64,000 bases of DNA from Bacilli bacterium (GTDB taxonomy: Bacteria > Bacillota_I > Bacilli_A > RF39 > UBA660): contig JAZQIU010000006.1 of the NCBI GenBank assembly GCA_045541255.1, positions 109,504-173,503 on the forward strand. Direction: 5' to 3'. This document shows positions 2,557 to 60,239 of the stretch, one piece after another (position 1 is the first letter of the stretch; each line of letters begins with the position of its first letter). The position numbers were made by a program, and so were the translations under genes. A model generated the notes under the pieces. It searched no databases. It worked only from the letters and a program-made list of their open reading frames with translations, and had not been told where the DNA came from.

Positions 2557-4584
2557 ATGAAAATGAAAAAGATAGTAATTATTTCGATAGTTTCAGTATT
2601 GTTGTTGGGTGGAATTATATTTGGTTTTTATAAATTATTTAAAGATGAAAATAGTTTGACAATTGCTGAAAAAACTTGGATAAGCAATAATAAAAATAGT
2701 GTTTATACAATAAATGTTCCAAATGATATAAATGTTTTTGGAAAGAATGGTGCGGGAGTATTCTTTGATTTTATTAATTCTTTAGATGAAGAATTAAGTT
2801 TAAAATTAAATAGTTCAGTATATTCAATTAATTCTACTAATGATGCTTTAGGATTTAATGTGGATACTAGTTATAATAGTAGAGATTTGTTAGTATATAT
2901 GGATTATTTTGTTTTAATTAGTAAAGATAAAAATAGTGTAGTTAATTTAGATAAAATCTCTGATAAAACTATAGGTATAATTGGTAAAGATTTAAGTTAT
3001 GTTAGTTCTTATTATAGTTTAAGTAATACAATAAAATCTTACGATAGTGGTGATGCGTTATTTAAAGGTTTAGAGGCTAATGAAGTTAGTTATGTTATAG
3101 TTCCTTTAAACCAATATAAAGATACTATAGTTAGTAAATCATATAATGTTAGTTATTTCTTTAATGATGCCAAAGTATATTATTATTTACATTTAGGTAG
3201 TGACGAAACATTAAATTCAATTATTACTAAATACTATAATATTTGGATAAATGACGAATATAATAAGAGTTATAATAGAAATAATTATAATTTATTTATA
3301 AATAGTTTAAAAATAACAGATATACAAGAAGATGAATTAACAGATAAAAGTTATATTTTTGAATATTTAGTTAATCAACCATATCAATTAATATCTAGAG
3401 GTGACTTTACTGGTGTAGTTAGTGAGTATTTAAATTCATTTACTGAGTTTAGTGATATAGAATTTGAATATGCTAAAGTTAAAAAATTTAATAATTTAAA
3501 GAATGATATTAGTAAGAAAAAAATAGATTTATATTTTAATCAATATAATTATTCTAGTAATTATTCAAAGATAAATATTAATTTTAATATAGATTATTAT
3601 TTAATTAGTAATAGAGATGTTAAGTTAAATATAGATAGTTTAAAGTCTTATAATGGTGAAATTTATGTTGAAGAAAATTCTATGCTTTATGAGTATTTAA
3701 GTAATTATAAAAATATTATTATTAAAACATATCCTAAATTAAGTAAAGTTAAAAGTTTATTAAAGAAAAATAATATTGTGTTAGTTGATAAGTTATCTTA
3801 TGATAATTATTTAATTGATAATTTAAGTAATGTGCATAAATTATTAGAGGATACTGTTGATAGTAAAACATATACATTTAATTATAAAAATGGAGAAGAT
3901 ATATTTTATAAATTATTTAGTAGTTATGTTAATACTTTAAATCCAAAAGAAGTAGTTGATGATAGTTTAAATACTTATTTTGAGACATATGAAGCTGGTA
4001 GTAGAACAGTTAAATTAGCTAGATATATTATTATGTTAATAATTGTATTGTTAATTGGAGCATATTTATTAATTAAGTCTAAAAAAAGAATTGTTTTAAA
4101 TACTAAAGTTAAAAATAATGAAAAAATTAGATATGTAGATATGTTAACTAGTTTAAAAAATAGAAATTATTTAAATGATAGAATGGAAATCTGGAACCAA
4201 AATACTGTGTACCCTCAAGCTGTTATTGTATTAGATTTAAACAATGTTAAATATTTAAATGATACATTTGGTCATGAAGAAGGGGATAAACAAATTAAAG
4301 CTGCTGCTAATGCTTTATTTAAAACACAATTAGATAATACTGAGTTATTAAGAACTGATGGTAATGAGTTTATGATTTATTTAGTAGGTTATAGTGAAAA
4401 GCAAGTAGTTAGTTACATTAAAAAGTTATTAAAAGAATTTAAAAAATTGCCTTATGAATATGGTGTTGCAATTGGATTTAGTATGATTAATGATGATTTG
4501 AAGTTGGTTGAAGATGCATTCAACGAAGCGATGTTAATGATGAGAAAAAATAAGAGCGCTTTTGAGGGTAATGATGATAAATAA
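2557..4584 (+). CDS. Membrane sensor protein with large extracytoplasmic region and degenerate GGDEF domain
   Basis: 675 aa: N-terminal TM, long Asn/Tyr-rich external region, second TM (IIMLIIVLLIGAYLLI), then a GGDEF-family C-terminus (DMLTSLKNRNYL..., LDLNNVKYLNDTFGHEEGD). The signature reads DGNEF rather than GGDEF/GGEEF. Confidence 0.7.
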   Translation: MKMKKIVIISIVSVLLLGGIIFGFYKLFKDENSLTIAEKTWISNNKNSVYTINVPNDINVFGKNGAGVFFDFINSLDEELSLKLNSSVYSINSTNDALGFNVDTSYNSRDLLVYMDYFVLISKDKNSVVNLDKISDKTIGIIGKDLSYVSSYYSLSNTIKSYDSGDALFKGLEANEVSYVIVPLNQYKDTIVSKSYNVSYFFNDAKVYYYLHLGSDETLNSIITKYYNIWINDEYNKSYNRNNYNLFINSLKITDIQEDELTDKSYIFEYLVNQPYQLISRGDFTGVVSEYLNSFTEFSDIEFEYAKVKKFNNLKNDISKKKIDLYFNQYNYSSNYSKININFNIDYYLISNRDVKLNIDSLKSYNGEIYVEENSMLYEYLSNYKNIIIKTYPKLSKVKSLLKKNNIVLVDKLSYDNYLIDNLSNVHKLLEDTVDSKTYTFNYKNGEDIFYKLFSSYVNTLNPKEVVDDSLNTYFETYEAGSRTVKLARYIIMLIIVLLIGAYLLIKSKKRIVLNTKVKNNEKIRYVDMLTSLKNRNYLNDRMEIWNQNTVYPQAVIVLDLNNVKYLNDTFGHEEGDKQIKAAANALFKTQLDNTELLRTDGNEFMIYLVGYSEKQVVSYIKKLLKEFKKLPYEYGVAIGFSMINDDLKLVEDAFNEAMLMMRKNKSAFEGNDDK

Positions 4585-53725: not shown

Positions 53726-54199
53726 ATGTTATTTGAATTCAAAAACAATAATAATGATTTTTATGATATGAATTTAGATTATTTTAATTTAAATAAGTAT
53801 GATATAAAGAATAATGAATTTAAGAATTATAATAATATGAATAAAAGTGATAATTTAGATTTAGAGAATGGTTTTTATTTAGGCAATATATTTAGTGATT
53901 TGTATAAACCGTATAAAAATTTTAAACCTAAAAAAATTAATGCTTATAGTGAACAACAAAAAATGTTATTACGTATTCAAGAATTAGATTTTATTATAAA
54001 TGATTTAAATTTATATTTAGATGTATATCCTAATGATATGAAATGTTATGAAATTTTCAAAAAATATTGTTTAGAACTTGAAAGTTTAAAAAAGAAATAT
54101 GAAGAAAAATATCAAGTTTTAGAACTTATTAATGATACTAAAGGAAAGTATACATGGATAGAAGAACCATGGCCTTGGGATGGAGGTAAATATGTTTAA
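53726..54199 (+). CDS. cotJB: Spore coat-associated protein CotJB (with CotJA-like N-terminal segment)
   Basis: CotJB core QELDFIINDLNLYLDVYPNDMKCYEIFKKY...YEEKY...EPWPWD. The N-terminal GNIFSDLYKPY resembles the CotJA motif. It sits directly upstream of cotJC. Confidence 0.7.
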   Translation: MLFEFKNNNNDFYDMNLDYFNLNKYDIKNNEFKNYNNMNKSDNLDLENGFYLGNIFSDLYKPYKNFKPKKINAYSEQQKMLLRIQELDFIINDLNLYLDVYPNDMKCYEIFKKYCLELESLKKKYEEKYQVLELINDTKGKYTWIEEPWPWDGGKYV

Positions 54200-54398
54200 G
54201 TATGATAAAAAACTTCCTTATCCAGTAGATATAAAGAAAAAAGATTTAAAGATGGCAAAATATATCATAACTCAATTTGGTGGTTCTAATGGGGAGATTG
54301 CTGCAGCGTTAAGATATTATTCACAAAAGTTTAGTATGCCTACTGAAGAGGGTAAAGCATTATTAAATGATATTGCTACTGAAGAACTACTACAATAA
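54192..54398 (+). pseudogene. cotJC: cotJC (Mn-catalase-family spore coat protein), 5' fragment truncated by prophage insertion
   Basis: MFKYDKKLPYPVDIKK...FGGSNGEIAAALRYYSQKF...LLNDIATEE follows the conserved CotJC N-terminus. It then reads LLQ-stop exactly where the metal-binding ExxH segment should follow. The fragment is about 68 aa, whereas I recall full-length CotJC as about 190 aa. Confidence 0.75.
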
Positions 54399-54484: not shown

Positions 54485-55348
54485 CTAATATAATTTAATA
54501 TTGTCCCAACGAGTAGTACCATTTTTAAAGTTAAGATTAACTTGTCTTTGAACTTCTGCATAATTAGATCCTAACGCTTTTTTACGAGCGTCGCCATTAC
54601 CGAAATCTCCTCTAATAGTTTTCTTAACTAAAGTTAAAATATCTACTGTAGGTTGTGGTTTAGGTGTTGCTGCTGGCTTAGAATTATTAGAACTTAACAT
54701 TTCATTAACTCTAGCTTGAACTTCACTATATCTGCTACCTAACGCTTTTTTACGGTCTTCTCCGTTACCATATTTACCAGCTATAACTTCCTTAGCTAAT
54801 TCGTCAACAGATTTATTAGCTATATCATTATTAGTAGTTGGTGTATTGTTTATAATTCCTATAACAGGATTTACAATACAACCTCTATAAGTATAGCCAC
54901 TACCAGCACCCCAGTTACCATTACCTTTATTACGTGTAGCAGTCCAGAAAGCCGTACTTCCGTAACCACTCTCAGCAGTTTTAACTTGAGTATCGCTATT
55001 TTTCTTAGTACAGATAGCAACGTGTCCTGCACCGTCATTACCAGATAAAGTAGCGCCTTTTTGCCATACCATAATACCACCGACAACTGGCTCTTTTACA
55101 ACTGATAATCCTAACGCGATAGCTCTTTCTATAAAGTTCTCAGCGTTACAATTTAACCAGTATTTTTCATACCCTAAATTGCACTCCTCATTAAATGCAC
55201 CGCAAGCATAACCTACACAGTTAGCTAAAACATTACAATTAGCGTCTGTTGGCTTTCCTTGAATACATGTAGAGTAACCACCGTTAGCTTTACGAATAAA
55301 ATATTTATTACCAGCTCCTGGCTTAGTTGTTCTTATATTCGTCATCAA
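54485..55348 (-). CDS. Endolysin: CHAP/NlpC-P60-like amidase-peptidase with two Cpl-7 (CW_7) cell-wall-binding repeats
   Basis: N-terminal Cys/His pair (NCVGYACG ... GHVAICT) and two C-terminal repeats GKYGNGEDRKKALGSRYSEVQARVNEML / GDFGNGDARKKALGSNYAEVQRQVNLNF. Confidence 0.85.
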   Translation of the reverse strand: MMTNIRTTKPGAGNKYFIRKANGGYSTCIQGKPTDANCNVLANCVGYACGAFNEECNLGYEKYWLNCNAENFIERAIALGLSVVKEPVVGGIMVWQKGATLSGNDGAGHVAICTKKNSDTQVKTAESGYGSTAFWTATRNKGNGNWGAGSGYTYRGCIVNPVIGIINNTPTTNNDIANKSVDELAKEVIAGKYGNGEDRKKALGSRYSEVQARVNEMLSSNNSKPAATPKPQPTVDILTLVKKTIRGDFGNGDARKKALGSNYAEVQRQVNLNFKNGTTRWDNIKLY

Positions 55349-57799: not shown

Positions 57800-57946
57800 A
57801 ATTCCTGGTCCTTTTAAAATTCTTATATTTGCCTGCAGGTCTTTCGAGAAATTTCATAATGAAGATAAACCTACTAAACCCACCCAGAACGACTAATTTT
57901 TAGCAAGCGCTATGGAAAATGATGTGTAAGGATTTAATGATAAGTA
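57800..57946 (-). other. TR-to-RT spacer (probable 3' part of the DGR template RNA)
   Basis: Non-coding 147 nt between TR and the RT start. By analogy with the Bordetella phage DGR, this spacer is expected to be part of the RNA that primes cDNA synthesis. Confidence 0.45.
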
Positions 57947-58049
57947 GTCGAGCTCCGTTGTTCTCCCACGTATTCGAAGACGCGTTGTTAGCATTAAGAC
58001 ACCACAAGCCACAATAACTAGAGTCTACCCAACAACCGCCGACACGAGC
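57947..58049 (-). repeat. DGR template repeat (TR)
   Basis: A 103-bp match to the VR. In the 97-nt core, all 6 mismatches are at TR adenines on the coding strand. VR-frame translation ARVGGCWVDSSYCGLWCLNANNASSNTWENNGAR (6 AAY Asn codons). Confidence 0.9.
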
Positions 58050-58103
58050 TAATCGCTTAAGATAACGAAACACACACACCAAGTCCCTATTTTAATATAA
58101 GTG

Positions 58104-58206
58104 GTCGAGCTCCGTAGTTGCCGTTATAATTCGAAGACGTATCATTCAGCGTATAACACCACAAGCCACAATTAGTACCATTGAGCCAACGACCGCCGAC
58201 AAGTAC
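58104..58206 (-). repeat. Orphan DGR cassette C6 (VR/TR-like, 103 bp)
   Basis: Same length and conserved blocks as VR/TR. VR-frame translation VLVGGRWLNGTNCGLWCYTLNDTSSNYNGNYGAR, no stop, 6 Asn codons. Confidence 0.8.
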
Positions 58207-58257
58207 AAATCGTGAAAACTACGAGCACACACACCAAATCCCATTTTAATATAAGTG

Positions 58258-58360
58258 GTCGAGCTCCGATCGTAGCGTTGTAATTCGAAGACGCTTCGTT
58301 AAGGTTCCAATACCACAAGCCACACATAAGGGCGTCAGCCCAATTACCGCCGACAAGAGT
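58258..58360 (-). repeat. Orphan DGR cassette C5
   Basis: VR-frame translation TLVGGNWADALMCGLWYWNLNEASSNYNATIGAR, no stop, 5 Asn codons. Confidence 0.8.
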
Positions 58361-58419
58361 ATAAAAGAATAACTACACGACCAGAGGCCACACACCAAAT
58401 CCCAATTTTAAAATAAGTA

Positions 58420-58522
58420 GTCGAGCTCCGACGTTGATATTCGATAACGAAGACGCGTCATTAAAGTTCCAATACCACAAGCCAGCTTGAGAGGTATTGT
58501 TCCATCTACCGCCGACAAGAGC
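58420..58522 (-). repeat. Orphan DGR cassette C4
   Basis: VR-frame translation ALVGGRWNNTSQAGLWYWNFNDASSLSNINVGAR, no stop, 6 Asn codons. Confidence 0.8.
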
Positions 58523-58579
58523 GAATAAAGACTAAACGTTCGAAGCGCACACATCAAATCCCTAATTTTGATATAAGCG

Positions 58580-58682
58580 GTCGAGCTCCGACGTTGTTCC
58601 AAGATTCCGAAGACGCGTTTTCAATAGTAAGAGCCCACAAGCCACTACAACTGACGTCCCAGAAGCTACCGCCGACAAAAAG
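58580..58682 (-). repeat. Orphan DGR cassette C3
   Basis: VR-frame translation LFVGGSFWDVSCSGLWALTIENASSESWNNVGAR, no stop, 3 Asn codons. Confidence 0.8.
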
Positions 58683-58736
58683 CAGTAACAGAAATACGGA
58701 GCCATACACACCAAATCCCAAATTTTAATATAAGTA

Positions 58737-58839
58737 GTCGAGCTCCGACGCCTGTACCATTAGCCGAAGAAAGCTCTTCAAAGTGCCAACACCACAAGCC
58801 ACAACGAAGCGCATTATTCCAATTGCCGCCGACAAGAGC
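58737..58839 (-). repeat. Orphan DGR cassette C2
   Basis: VR-frame translation ALVGGNWNNALRCGLWCWHFEELSSANGTGVGAR, no stop, 4 Asn codons. Confidence 0.8.
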
Positions 58840-58894
58840 GAACGCTGAGAGTTAGCACGAACTATACACACCAAATCCCATTTTAATATAAGTG

Positions 58895-58997
58895 GTCGAG
58901 CTCCGACGTCGGCTACTGACTCAGAAGAATCTAGCAGCAGCAAATAACTAAATAATCCAGAACGATTATCAATACGCCAAAGACCGCCGACAAGAGC
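58895..58997 (-). repeat. Orphan DGR cassette C1
   Basis: VR-frame translation ALVGGLWRIDNRSGLFSYLLLLDSSESVADVGAR, no stop, 1 Asn codon. This is the most divergent copy (SGLF instead of CGLW). Confidence 0.75.
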
Positions 58998-59051: not shown

Positions 59052-59137
59052 GCGGCTCCGACTACAGTCGGTATAATAATTATTTTTATTTATGGGAGGC
59101 TGGCCGCCCCCAAACCCCCGCTAACTGGTTTTAAGAA
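59052..59137 (-). promoter_or_regulatory. VR-specific 3' flank: GC-rich island plus small hairpin (candidate IMH/target-recognition element)
   Basis: Directly after the stop codon lies cgggggtttgggggcggccagcctccc (59094-59121, coding strand), very GC-rich in an AT-rich context. A hairpin CCGAC-TGTA-GTCGG follows at 59058-59071. The segment is absent downstream of TR and of all six cassettes. Confidence 0.5.
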
Positions 59138-60239
59138 GTCGAGCTCCGCTGACCTCCCACGTAAGCGAAGACGCGTTGTTAGCATTAAGACACCACAAGC
59201 CACAATAACTAGAGTCCACCCAACAACCGCCGACAAGAGCGATTCTATTTCCTGGATTACACCAGTAATAATCTGTAGTGTAAGTATCACTACTACCACC
59301 TACTTTAGTAGGGAAAGCAACTAACGGATTCTTAGAATCGTAACCTAACTCTGTAATATAACTACCACCAGTAGAACTATTTACATAGCCAACTTTCTCA
59401 TAATCTCCGTCAAAGACGTCGCTTGCGTAAGAAGTAGGATTATAACAGATATAAGCTTCATATTCTGATATATTAACACCGTCTAAGAATTGCCATATAT
59501 TACCGAATATATCTTCAATTCCACGATAGATAACAGATCCTTTATCAGTACCTGTAGCACTTCCAGATTTCATACCTAAACTATTGCAGCCACCACTATT
59601 TAAAGCAGCAGTATTGCTTCCGTTAGTATAACCTGGTCCTAATTTTGACTGAGAATTATAATCAGCATATTCAACTAAATATAATAATTGAATTAGGAAA
59701 TAATGCCAGTCTAATTGGTGCCAGCCACTACCTAGATTTTTAGCGTATGTTCTAAAGTCTGCTATAGTTTTACTTACTAAAGGAGCATAACCACTACGAC
59801 TATAAACTCCGTCGCTTGATCCAGACATAGTATAACGTCCGATCATAAATTCTTTACTTCTAGTAAAGCCACTTAAATTATCTTTAGAGATAAGTACATA
59901 TTCGTAACCGTAAGACACATACCTCTTATAATAGAATTCTGGTATTATTGTCATTACTTGACCGTTACTACCTGTAAAGGAAAAATTAGCGTCGCCATAA
60001 TAAGCAACTATCTTTTTATTAGTATTATCATAATTACAAGTGATTATATCACTCCATGGGTAAATACTATCAAAGTCGTTTCTTACTGCAGTAGTACCAA
60101 CTTGAGCGTTAGCTACTAAACCTACGGCGTCCTCAATTCTTTCCCAAGCAGACGAAGCAGAACTTATTTTACGTCTTACTCCGTATACTTTACTTAAATT
60201 GTTCGATTTCTTTTCTCGAACATTTATTACACCTAACAT
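59121..60239 (-). CDS. DGR target protein: tail fibre / receptor-binding protein with C-terminal lectin (FGE-sulfatase-like) fold
   Basis: 372 aa in the tail-fibre position. It carries the FGE/CLec-like motif YRGIEDIFGNIWQFLDG, and its C-terminus GGCW...CGLWC...GARL carries the VR. Confidence 0.88.
   Translation of the reverse strand: MLGVINVREKKSNNLSKVYGVRRKISSASSAWERIEDAVGLVANAQVGTTAVRNDFDSIYPWSDIITCNYDNTNKKIVAYYGDANFSFTGSNGQVMTIIPEFYYKRYVSYGYEYVLISKDNLSGFTRSKEFMIGRYTMSGSSDGVYSRSGYAPLVSKTIADFRTYAKNLGSGWHQLDWHYFLIQLLYLVEYADYNSQSKLGPGYTNGSNTAALNSGGCNSLGMKSGSATGTDKGSVIYRGIEDIFGNIWQFLDGVNISEYEAYICYNPTSYASDVFDGDYEKVGYVNSSTGGSYITELGYDSKNPLVAFPTKVGGSSDTYTTDYYWCNPGNRIALVGGCWVDSSYCGLWCLNANNASSLTWEVSGARLLKTS
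59138..59240 (-). repeat. DGR variable repeat (VR), 3' end of the target gene
   Basis: 103-bp counterpart of the TR, encoding ALVGGCWVDSSYCGLWCLNANNASSLTWEVSGAR. It differs from the TR at adenine positions only within the core. Confidence 0.9.

Follow-up and report, generated by a model that had tools for sequence, protein, structure and literature searches.

We analyzed a 64,000-nucleotide (nt) stretch of a Bacilli bacterium genome (GTDB lineage Bacteria; Bacillota_I; Bacilli_A; RF39; UBA660), taken from GenBank assembly GCA_045541255.1 (contig JAZQIU010000006.1, positions 109,504 to 173,503) and referred to here as the window. It carries a prophage with a diversity-generating retroelement (DGR). 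Read along the minus strand, the gene of a tail protein, which contains the variable repeat (VR), is followed by six cassettes (C1 to C6), a last template repeat (TR), one spacer (Sp) RNA, and the gene of a reverse transcriptase (RT). The subject of this report is the cassette array, which a first-pass annotation had singled out for the codon composition of its variable positions.

The individual parts of the element are those of a DGR. The best PDB match of the RT is the BPP-1 bRT (8ub7_A; residues 2 to 323; E value, 3.7e-36), whereas group II and retron RTs match it only at E values of 1e-10 to 1e-11, and its translation contains the motif IGNFTSQ, which we take to be a hallmark of DGR RTs. 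The VR forms the last ~40 codons of a tail protein of 372 amino acids (aa) and differs from the RT-proximal TR at seven positions, six of which are TR adenines and the seventh of which lies at the 5' boundary. The target gene ends a siphovirus-type tail module, after Sipho_Gp37-type tail genes; a tail-fiber assembly gene and a lysis cassette then follow, and the gene overlapping the 3' end of the RT gene is that of the tail-fiber assembly protein. The fold of the target protein was not assigned by Pfam or by a sequence search of PDB; a profile search of PDB returned a weak match (5vf4_A; E value, 0.011), and a single-sequence AlphaFold model was unusable (pLDDT, 32). The region between TR and RT matches the Rfam family RT-18 (RF03021) over its full length (1 to 84; 60.2 bits versus a gathering score of 41.3), a family defined as an RNA motif beside RT genes with a suspected role in DGRs (Weinberg et al. 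2017, PMC5737381). One RT-18 copy was found after the last module in 11 of 11 relatives tested, i.e., there is one RT and one RT-18 spacer per element. A GC-rich element (CGGGGGTTTGGGGGCGGCCAGCCTCCC) is conserved 3' of the VR in five related loci (L244, L001, L008, L012, and L017; loci are designated by L numbers throughout) and is absent after cassettes; its predicted hairpin is weak (z = -0.07) and not better than that of shuffled sequences. No Avd- or HRDC-like accessory gene was seen among the eight open reading frames (ORFs) scanned (54.4 to 62.2 kb; the rest of the prophage lies outside the window), and 20 sister loci described below contain no extra genes between target and RT. A blastn search against GenBank phages revealed no close relative, only RT fragments at 66 to 85% identity. 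By its RT, its TR/VR pair, its target, and its spacer, the element is thus a DGR, which departs from the architecture of one TR per VR.

The departure lies in the array. The VR, C1 to C6, and the last TR are eight modules that align without gaps, each having exactly 97 nt between the anchors GTCGAGCTCCG and CCGCCGAC. C1 to C6 follow one another with a tandem period of 154 to 162 nt, and the last TR lies 147 nt upstream of the RT gene. The repeat unit (~155 nt) is present seven times, as C1 to C6 and the last TR. Each copy combines a 14-nt strand (GGGAYTTGRTGTGT), which lies about 25 to 30 nt upstream of the template, with a variable linker of ~25 nt, the 103-nt template itself, and a short AT-rich flank. 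In the VR frame, every module encodes aLVGG-x-W-x6-GLW-x7-SS-x6-GAR, with ~20 variable codons; the number of AAY (asparagine; Y, T or C) codons among them is given for each module in Table 1. The scaffolds of the window cassettes are almost identical, whereas the cassettes differ pairwise at 31 to 49 of 103 nt, and no pair of window cassettes has an adenine-only relationship. A promoter and terminator scan of the array gave results no better than shuffled sequences.

Table 1. Coordinates of the target gene, array modules, duplex strands, spacer RNA, and RT gene in the window
Feature	Position	Strand	Remarks
DGR target gene, 372-aa tail protein, VR at 3' end	59121..60239	-	ORF; PHROG phrog_5302 'tail protein', E 5e-67
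VR	59138..59240	-	Adenine-mutated copy of RT-proximal TR in this genome; 3 AAY
GC-rich element CGGGGGTTTGGGGGCGGCCAGCCTCCC	59094..59120	-	Just 3' of stop codon; candidate target-recognition element
Small hairpin near first upstream strand	59058-59071	-	Fold z = -2.7
First upstream strand copy GGGCATGGTGTGT, precedes C1	59024..59036	-	Proposed stop duplex
C1, template-like, 1 AAY	58895..58997	-	Eroded scaffold, GLF for GLW
Upstream strand GGGATTTGGTGTGT, precedes C2	58866..58879	-	Motif copy
C2, alternative template, 4 AAY	58737..58839	-	
Upstream strand before C3	58706..58719	-	Motif copy
C3, alternative template, 3 AAY	58580..58682	-	Templated 3' half of one L289 VR version
Upstream strand before C4	58549..58562	-	Motif copy
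C4, alternative template, 6 AAY	58420..58522	-	Most used in window lineage
Upstream strand before C5	58390..58403	-	Motif copy
C5, alternative template, 5 AAY	58258..58360	-	Used in sister prophages
Upstream strand before C6	58229..58242	-	Motif copy
C6, alternative template, 6 AAY	58104..58206	-	Close variant used in sisters
Upstream strand GGGACTTGGTGTGT, precedes last TR	58074..58087	-	Motif copy
RT-proximal TR, template of present VR, 6 AAY	57947..58049	-	
Single-copy spacer strand ACACATCATTTTCC	57914..57927	-	Complementary to every upstream strand
Spacer (Sp) RNA, Rfam RT-18	57822..57912	-	Starts with short hairpin (57902-57911), then AAAAA
DGR reverse transcriptase, 354 aa	56735..57799	-	Pfam RVT_1; BPP-1 bRT match

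Sister prophages were retrieved by exact match to the window RT and the upstream 304-aa protein, which yielded 20 loci from other gut samples. These phages with an identical RT carry 6, 8, or 9 modules (target-RT gaps of 1004, about 1311 to 1322, or about 1464 to 1477 nt; L283 to L301), and most of the variation between their arrays lies near the VR, where C1 is replaced by two unrelated units that lack AAY and have eroded scaffolds. One sister (L290) shares 98.9% identity with the window phage across 7.9 kb; its RT is identical, its C1 to C6 and TR show zero differences, and its VR is C4 with nine adenine changes and one other change. Across the lineage, 17 distinct VRs (18 with the second L289 version) were traced to C3, C4, C5, C6, or the last TR, including mosaics of C4 with C5, C6 with C4, and C4 with the last TR. 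C4 was used in L290, L292, L287/L295, L298/L301, and L299, with halves in L283, L285, L286, and L300; C5 was used in L288 and L291, with halves in L283 and L289; and a close variant of C6 was used in L284 and L293, with a half in L285. C3 appeared in one L289 version of the VR, in which a C5-like 5' half is joined to a 3' half that differs from C3 at six adenines and at no other base. Hence, at least four of the six window cassettes are used as templates. Identical arrays combined with different VR templates in sister phages identify the cassettes as alternative template repeats. In L289 / L297 (locus ~2975 to 3190), the target ORF was called with 404 aa and two VR versions are separated by a run of N, which suggests VR heterogeneity within one sample.

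We then extended the template assignment to more distant arrays. Relatives, found by a target-protein search and two DNA-pattern scans, comprised many human-gut phage and prophage contigs, and their modules were located with a profile built from the eight window modules. A further pattern scan, of genome contigs (CTTGTCGGCGG..GCTCGAC), was too loose, producing chance matches in GC-rich genomes, with only L109 being relevant. In total, 78 related loci had 3 to 9 modules downstream of the target gene (65 distinct series), while more distant relatives had a VR and a TR only. The template of each VR was defined as its nearest cassette by plain Hamming distance, a criterion that does not itself favor differences at adenines. 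Across 33 distinct VRs, adenines of the template accounted for 255 of the 298 differences (86%), although adenine makes up 20% of the template bases (p 1e-129), and the nearest cassette was internal rather than RT proximal for 30 of these VRs. Modules 2 to 9 all serve as templates among the relatives, mostly with no non-A mismatch. Examples are module 3 of 5 in L004 (13/13 differences at A), module 6 of 7 in L008 (11/12), module 3 of 8 in L012 (12/12), module 2 of 8 in L016, module 8 of 9 in L273, and module 9 of 9 in L249; L017 and L022 share the same array, and their VRs come from module 3 and module 2, respectively. Template adenines were changed in the VRs at a rate of 38% (to G, 119; to T, 68; to C, 21).

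Approximately one in four VRs is a mosaic, with its 5' part from one cassette and its 3' part from another. Mosaic breakpoints lie at module positions 36 to 60, around the invariant GGCTTGTGG, and leave zero to two non-A mismatches; chimeric VRs were found in L001, L011, L238, L242, L245, L266, L283, L285, L286, and L300 and in one L289 version. The choice of unit can also change the length of the VR by one codon: the VR of L258 is 106 nt long, as is the 106-nt cassette that was copied. Cassettes of 100 and 106 nt (i.e., minus or plus one codon) coexist with 103-nt cassettes in single arrays (L008, L011, L012, L016, L258, and others).

Several units of the array therefore each template adenine-mutagenized complementary DNA (cDNA) that rewrites one VR, and at least five modules of the window array do so for the same VR in sister phages. 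We conclude, with a probability of roughly 0.85, that the region serves one DGR as a library of alternative template repeats in tandem. A scheme was rejected in which the RT-proximal TR alone acts as template and receives cassettes in its slot; internal cassettes are never copied in the last module, and identical arrays are accompanied by VRs from different cassettes.

How one spacer RNA could serve several templates is suggested by the upstream strands. One copy of the GGGAYTTGRTGTGT motif lies upstream of each of the seven templates, the first of them after the GC-rich element and the small hairpin that follow the VR, and the single complementary strand (ACACATCATTTTCC) lies in the spacer, succeeded by a 3- to 4-bp hairpin and then AAAAA. 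The upstream strand and ACACATCATTTTCC are complementary over 14 nt with two U-U mismatches, and the same pair of strands brackets the TR in single-TR relatives. Over 19 distinct pairs of strands, a model of a 12-pair duplex and a 4-pair hairpin was paired in 99.7% of cells, compared with 37 to 60% for slid controls; the test used the 14-mer with the best complementarity upstream of the last module, a choice that pushes this percentage up. Compensatory changes affect three duplex pairs and three hairpin pairs (L028, L031, L058, and L059). In BPP-1, the cPRT Stop is formed by an upstream (avd) strand paired with Sp positions 59 to 70, after which come a short stem-loop and adenosines; cis-priming depends on this structure, which also halts the cDNA just upstream of TR and was predicted in 207 other DGRs (bioRxiv 10.1101/2023.10.23.563531). 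By analogy, we infer that ACACATCATTTTCC is the equivalent of the spacer strand of this duplex. The single spacer strand would pair with the upstream strand of whichever unit is used, and the pairing would recreate for that unit the upstream:spacer duplex needed in BPP-1 for a cis-primed start and stop. The shared 3' end of the units (GGAGCTCGAC-YACTTAT) would provide the same initiation context, so that any unit could be presented to the RT. Chimeras may then arise from partial, 3'-anchored homing or from template switching (copy-choice) at the shared GGCTTGTGG scaffold.

Several observations weigh against the template library or its proposed mechanism. In addition to the bias of the duplex test, duplex energies relative to shuffled sequences are moderate (z = -1.6 to -3.1), and the duplex claim rests on covariation and conservation rather than on energies. 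Why cDNA synthesis should start at the 3' end of a given unit does not follow from pairing of its upstream strand alone. With no Avd-like gene near the RT, the analogy to BPP-1 may be incomplete. Use of C1 and C2 was not seen among the VRs of the window lineage, and the C1 scaffold is eroded; not every cassette need be active. The VRs of L233, L258, and L270 are identical to cassettes with 14 to 19 adenines in the body, copies that are unlikely at a per-adenine change of 38% and that point to some RT-independent recombination as well. Finally, the VR states are assembly consensus sequences, mostly metagenomic, in which repeats can be mis-threaded. L262 is hybrid looking, N gaps interrupt L289 and L292, and many contigs are broken at the VR, as might be expected if assemblers had mixed VR and cassette sequences. 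Nevertheless, an assembly artifact is hardly credible as the source of the pattern: the window shares its architecture with more than 60 independent contigs, which come from different studies, mis-threading cannot make adenine-specific differences, and the scaffolds common to different cassettes are short (~9 to 25 nt).

The exact copies bear on a second alternative, in which the cassettes are silent donors for RT-independent gene conversion, as in pilS/pilE and vls, and adenine mutagenesis proceeds only from the RT-proximal TR. The cassettes are indeed promoterless, truncated copies with conserved flanking scaffolds, the three exact VRs are of the kind that conversion produces, and the L003 VR equals a cassette in an array collapsed to two modules. 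However, the 255 of 298 VR differences at adenines of an internal cassette require reverse transcription of that very cassette; had the last TR been the source, homing would have replaced the cassette-specific sequence instead of mutating it, and no internal cassette is copied in the last module. Gene conversion as the general explanation is therefore improbable, whereas the exact copies in L233, L258, and L270 point to faithful recombination or to write-back of the VR into a cassette. The VR of L003 / L210 matches a cassette (L001 module 6) without any mutation, and only two modules are left in the array, which reflects either a deletion by VR-cassette recombination or an assembly collapse.

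A third alternative holds that the cassettes are functionless, decaying duplicates of the TR, created by slippage or unequal crossing-over, whose codon bias was inherited from an ancestral TR. The regular tandem period, the variation from six to nine modules among phages with an identical RT, and the VR-proximal units with eroded scaffolds fit such a history. Decay does not account for scaffold and flank motifs that are nearly invariant while variable codons are saturated (the 31 to 49 differences per 103 nt noted above), nor for substitutions between orthologous cassettes that favor third codon positions (81/59/46 at positions 3/1/2), and cassettes are demonstrably used as templates. It is contradicted for C3 to C6 and could hold for C1 or C2; as an account of the array as a whole, we regard it as very improbable.

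The reading of the array as a template library also explains its codon statistics. The first-pass annotation had counted codons ending in T or C (NNY) among 19 variable codons per cassette (C6, 16; C5, 14; C4, 13; C1, 12), and these counts were reproduced once one column that always ends in Y was dropped; with 20 variable codons, they become 17, 15, 14, and 13 of 20. The exact test that it had proposed was run with 56 long ORFs of the same window as background. NNY codons made up 89 of 120 variable codons (74%) in C1 to C6, compared with 52.5% in host genes (16,040 codons; Fisher p 1e-6) and 55.3% in phage genes (2,351 codons; p 2.5e-5), p values that are optimistic because the cassettes share ancestry. 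The background is thus 52 to 55%, not the about 70% named in advance as speaking against a real excess. The excess persisted after conditioning on the amino acid (41/59 observed versus 29 to 31 expected; z = 2.9 to 3.9).

The annotation had interpreted NNY as the footprint of mutagenesis of AAY codons, and this specific interpretation is not supported. Third positions of the 120 variable codons are T in 57, C in 32, G in 20, and A in 11. What is depleted is therefore codons ending in A (9% versus 36 to 39% in the background; p 1e-11 to 1e-13), whereas G-ending codons are doubled (17% versus 8 to 9%) and Y/(Y+G) is 82%, not significantly different from the background (86%). The avoidance of NNA is just as strong in scaffold codons upstream of the 3' element (3/66 in the window modules, read from the codon table), and scaffold columns are 91 to 100% NNY across 68 cassette clusters. 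Columns of the alignment prone to AAY (12, 14, 15, 18, 25, 27, 28, 32, 34, and 36) can be distinguished from diverse columns that are almost never AAY (16, 17, 26, 29, 33, and 35); non-AAY codons are no more Y biased in the former than in the latter. The 551 adenines of used templates are distributed over codon positions 1, 2, and 3 as 266, 247, and 38, respectively, in line with the general placement of TR adenines at positions 1 and 2 (PMC5758913). The NNY bias is thus a template signature, i.e., avoidance of adenines at third positions. Adenines would be kept to positions 1 and 2 of the codons meant to vary; in modules that are templates, codons ending in A are accordingly rare, and the ends are T, C, or G.

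The AAY counts per module given in the annotation (VR, 3; C1, 1; C2, 4; C3, 3; C4, 6; C5, 5; C6, 6; TR, 6) were exact. The rise toward the RT that it drew from them holds in the window, where the trend from C1 to TR, chosen post hoc, has a Spearman rho of 0.85 (exact one-sided p = 0.014), and is not general: on 32 complete related arrays, rho was positive in 17 and negative in 15 (mean, 0.18), the polarity being clade specific. In the L012 clade, AAY is absent from the RT-proximal module and occurs seven times in the second cassette. First cassettes tend to be poor in AAY (2.06 versus 3.53). For 28 VRs with a clear template, the cassette used was richer in AAY than a random cassette of the same array (4.64 versus 3.43; permutation p 0.003), and its position in the array mattered little (p 0.09); because arrays within clades are not independent, the usage and gradient p values are only indicative. 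The AAY count is a measure of the adenine mutagenesis that a template permits. AAY-poor cassettes are also real templates (in L016, L244, and L281, and C3 in L289). The proposed division into template-like RT-proximal and product-like target-proximal cassettes accordingly survives in part: the AAY-rich C4, C5, C6, and last repeat are literally templates of the VR in sister prophages, and the AAY-poorer C3 is one too, for one 3' half. Two more AAY-poor cassettes have exact unmutated VR copies (L233 and L270), which may reflect recombination rather than templating.

That division belongs to a broader alternative, in which the cassettes are an archive of former VR states written by adenine mutagenesis, with products at the VR-proximal end, templates at the RT-proximal end, and NNY as the footprint. 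In its favor are the NNY excess, the Asn trend in the window, the AAY-poor first cassette, and a set of derived cassettes in relatives. In at least five of the latter, the whole body or the 3' half is an adenine-only derivative (4 to 9 changes) of another cassette. Module 4 of L017/L022/L270/L272 corresponds to a cassette of L001, L241, and L248 whose body has been altered by seven AAY-to-NNY changes only, and the L270 VR is identical to this derived module 4, which fits a VR-to-cassette conversion in an ancestor. In L262, the last module copies module 7 with adenine changes. In L241 module 2, L261 module 4, and L281 module 5, the 3' halves are adenine-only derivatives (4 to 6 changes) and the 5' halves differ, the same mosaic pattern as in VRs. 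Derivation of whole modules or 3' halves by T-, G-, or C-only changes was found in no pair. In the half-module test, 3' halves gave seven pairs for A and none for T, G, or C; the result for 5' halves was weak (19 pairs for A versus 5 for T), and the whole-module test on an enlarged set yielded no pair with every difference at A. L262 is a 1825-nt contig in which a VR-type module with the GC-rich element is preceded by four GGAGCTCGAC-type cassettes and followed by GGTGCTCGAC-type ones; it is probably a chimeric assembly of two phages.

Several results stand against an archive as the general origin of the array. The third-position bias is NNA avoidance with enrichment of G-ending codons and is common to scaffold codons. 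The 186 substitutions placed on minimum-spanning trees in the 68 clusters are not adenine specific (CT, 53; AG, 44; GT, 32; AT, 25; AC, 20; CG, 12) and, as mentioned above, are most frequent at third positions; the cassettes mostly evolve like ordinary constrained coding DNA. In a comparison with a family consensus, an excess of differences at A was marginal for C1 (p = 0.04), and in C2 and C3, non-A positions differed with the same frequency as A positions. Derived cassettes are found anywhere in the array, the last position included, the AAY trend has no general polarity (17 positive versus 15 negative arrays), low-AAY cassettes serve as templates, and none of the window cassettes is an adenine-only derivative of any sampled cassette. 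We therefore consider the archive an unlikely description of the array, though one with a core that applies to some relatives. The idea that new cassettes are added VR-proximally as captured VRs was rejected, given that adenine-derived cassettes occur at any position.

The annotation's suggestion that DGR mutagenesis wrote the cassettes thus holds as an occasional process in relatives, with no case among the window cassettes in the sampled set. On occasion, mutagenized sequence is returned to a cassette, either through conversion by the VR or through homing to the wrong target, which makes part of the library content product derived. Combined with the template library, this leads to a more tentative proposal, to which we give somewhat less than even odds: a two-way, self-updating library in which a choice among ~4 to 8 templates, programmed by RNA pairing, is joined to mosaic halves, adenine mutagenesis, one-codon length changes, and occasional write-back of successful or recent VRs, which would give the phage a heritable and evolving record of solutions for receptor binding.

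Compared with the BPP-1 DGR (the mtd VR, one TR, Sp RNA, bRT, and Avd), the window element shares a bRT-like RT, a VR that closes a tail or receptor-binding gene at its 3' end, template-to-VR differences of the A-to-N kind, a structured RNA in the spacer that separates TR from RT, and an upstream:spacer duplex with a short hairpin and adenosines after it. It differs in having seven tandem templates for one VR, in repeating the upstream duplex strand before each template opposite a single spacer strand, in the half-and-half chimeric VRs of its family, in the lack of an Avd seen near the RT, and in that many template codons at variable positions are not AAY. The Rfam RT-18 model, for its part, starts after the stop-duplex strand and does not include the long-range pairing or the repeated partner strands. 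The concentration of adenines at codon positions 1 and 2 is shared with canonical DGRs (PMC5758913). More than one repeat of the TR/VR family per element is also known, with one TR serving many VRs (Treponema and Stenotrophomonas) or several TR-VR pairs (Zeta crAss-like phage Lera) (PMC5758913, PMC6642488, PMC12386605), and the literature further includes two TRs with six VRs, three separate TR-VR pairs, and engineered multiple TRs. In those systems, a TR serves its own VR(s) or one TR serves many VRs, whereas here many TRs in a head-to-tail noncoding array serve one VR. No description of a tandem array of alternative TRs for one VR was found in searchable full text, which mostly leaves out subscription journals, and a prior description is possible.

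The arrangement also resembles antigenic variation systems. In Neisseria pilS/pilE, Borrelia vls, and pseudo-V conversion of immunoglobulin genes, promoterless partial copies with a conserved framework feed one expressed locus by mosaic transfer, and in the immunoglobulin case, donor choice is combined with point hypermutation. The window array is likewise a bank of partial copies with segmental transfer to one expressed locus. Unlike in silent-cassette systems, transfer proceeds via RNA and an error-prone RT, as indicated by the adenine-specific changes, and not by DNA recombination alone, and the bank sits between target and RT with one common priming RNA. Nor is transfer faithful in the manner of pilS or vls, given the changes at 38% of template adenines and the mere three exact VRs.

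Beyond the DGR, the insertion site of the prophage seems to be a sporulation (spore-coat) gene. An N-terminal fragment (72 aa) of a CotJC-type Mn-catalase gene (54180-54398, plus strand), preceded by cotJB-like genes, abuts the prophage end and adjoins the lysin gene (54485-55348, minus strand); the same junction occurs in L286, L288, and L289. Other sister contigs carry a 721-aa large serine recombinase beside the lysin, as expected for an unintegrated or other-end configuration. The lysis module is swapped among phages with an identical RT, the window endolysin being of the CHAP+CW_7 type and that of several sisters being of the Peptidase_M23+CW_7 type (compared in L283 to L285, L288, L291, and L292).

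These results have practical consequences. DGR-finding pipelines that pair a VR with the RT-proximal repeat will misassign templates or report "non-adenine" substitutions in such elements, and template arrays with one common spacer RNA offer a design idea for DGR-based directed evolution. One spacer strand with several alternative partners also provides a natural test of how the duplex selects and bounds a template. The tandem-template arrangement is common in human-gut prophages, with dozens of independent contigs in the viral and metagenome collections searched. Single-TR DGRs vary only at template adenines, and positions without a template adenine are frozen. The library adds variation at the columns that are almost never AAY, recombined halves, and a change in loop length; with its template differences, the sequence space and host-range reach would extend far beyond those of a single TR. 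Lastly, the cases of write-back suggest a route by which DGR templates themselves may evolve.

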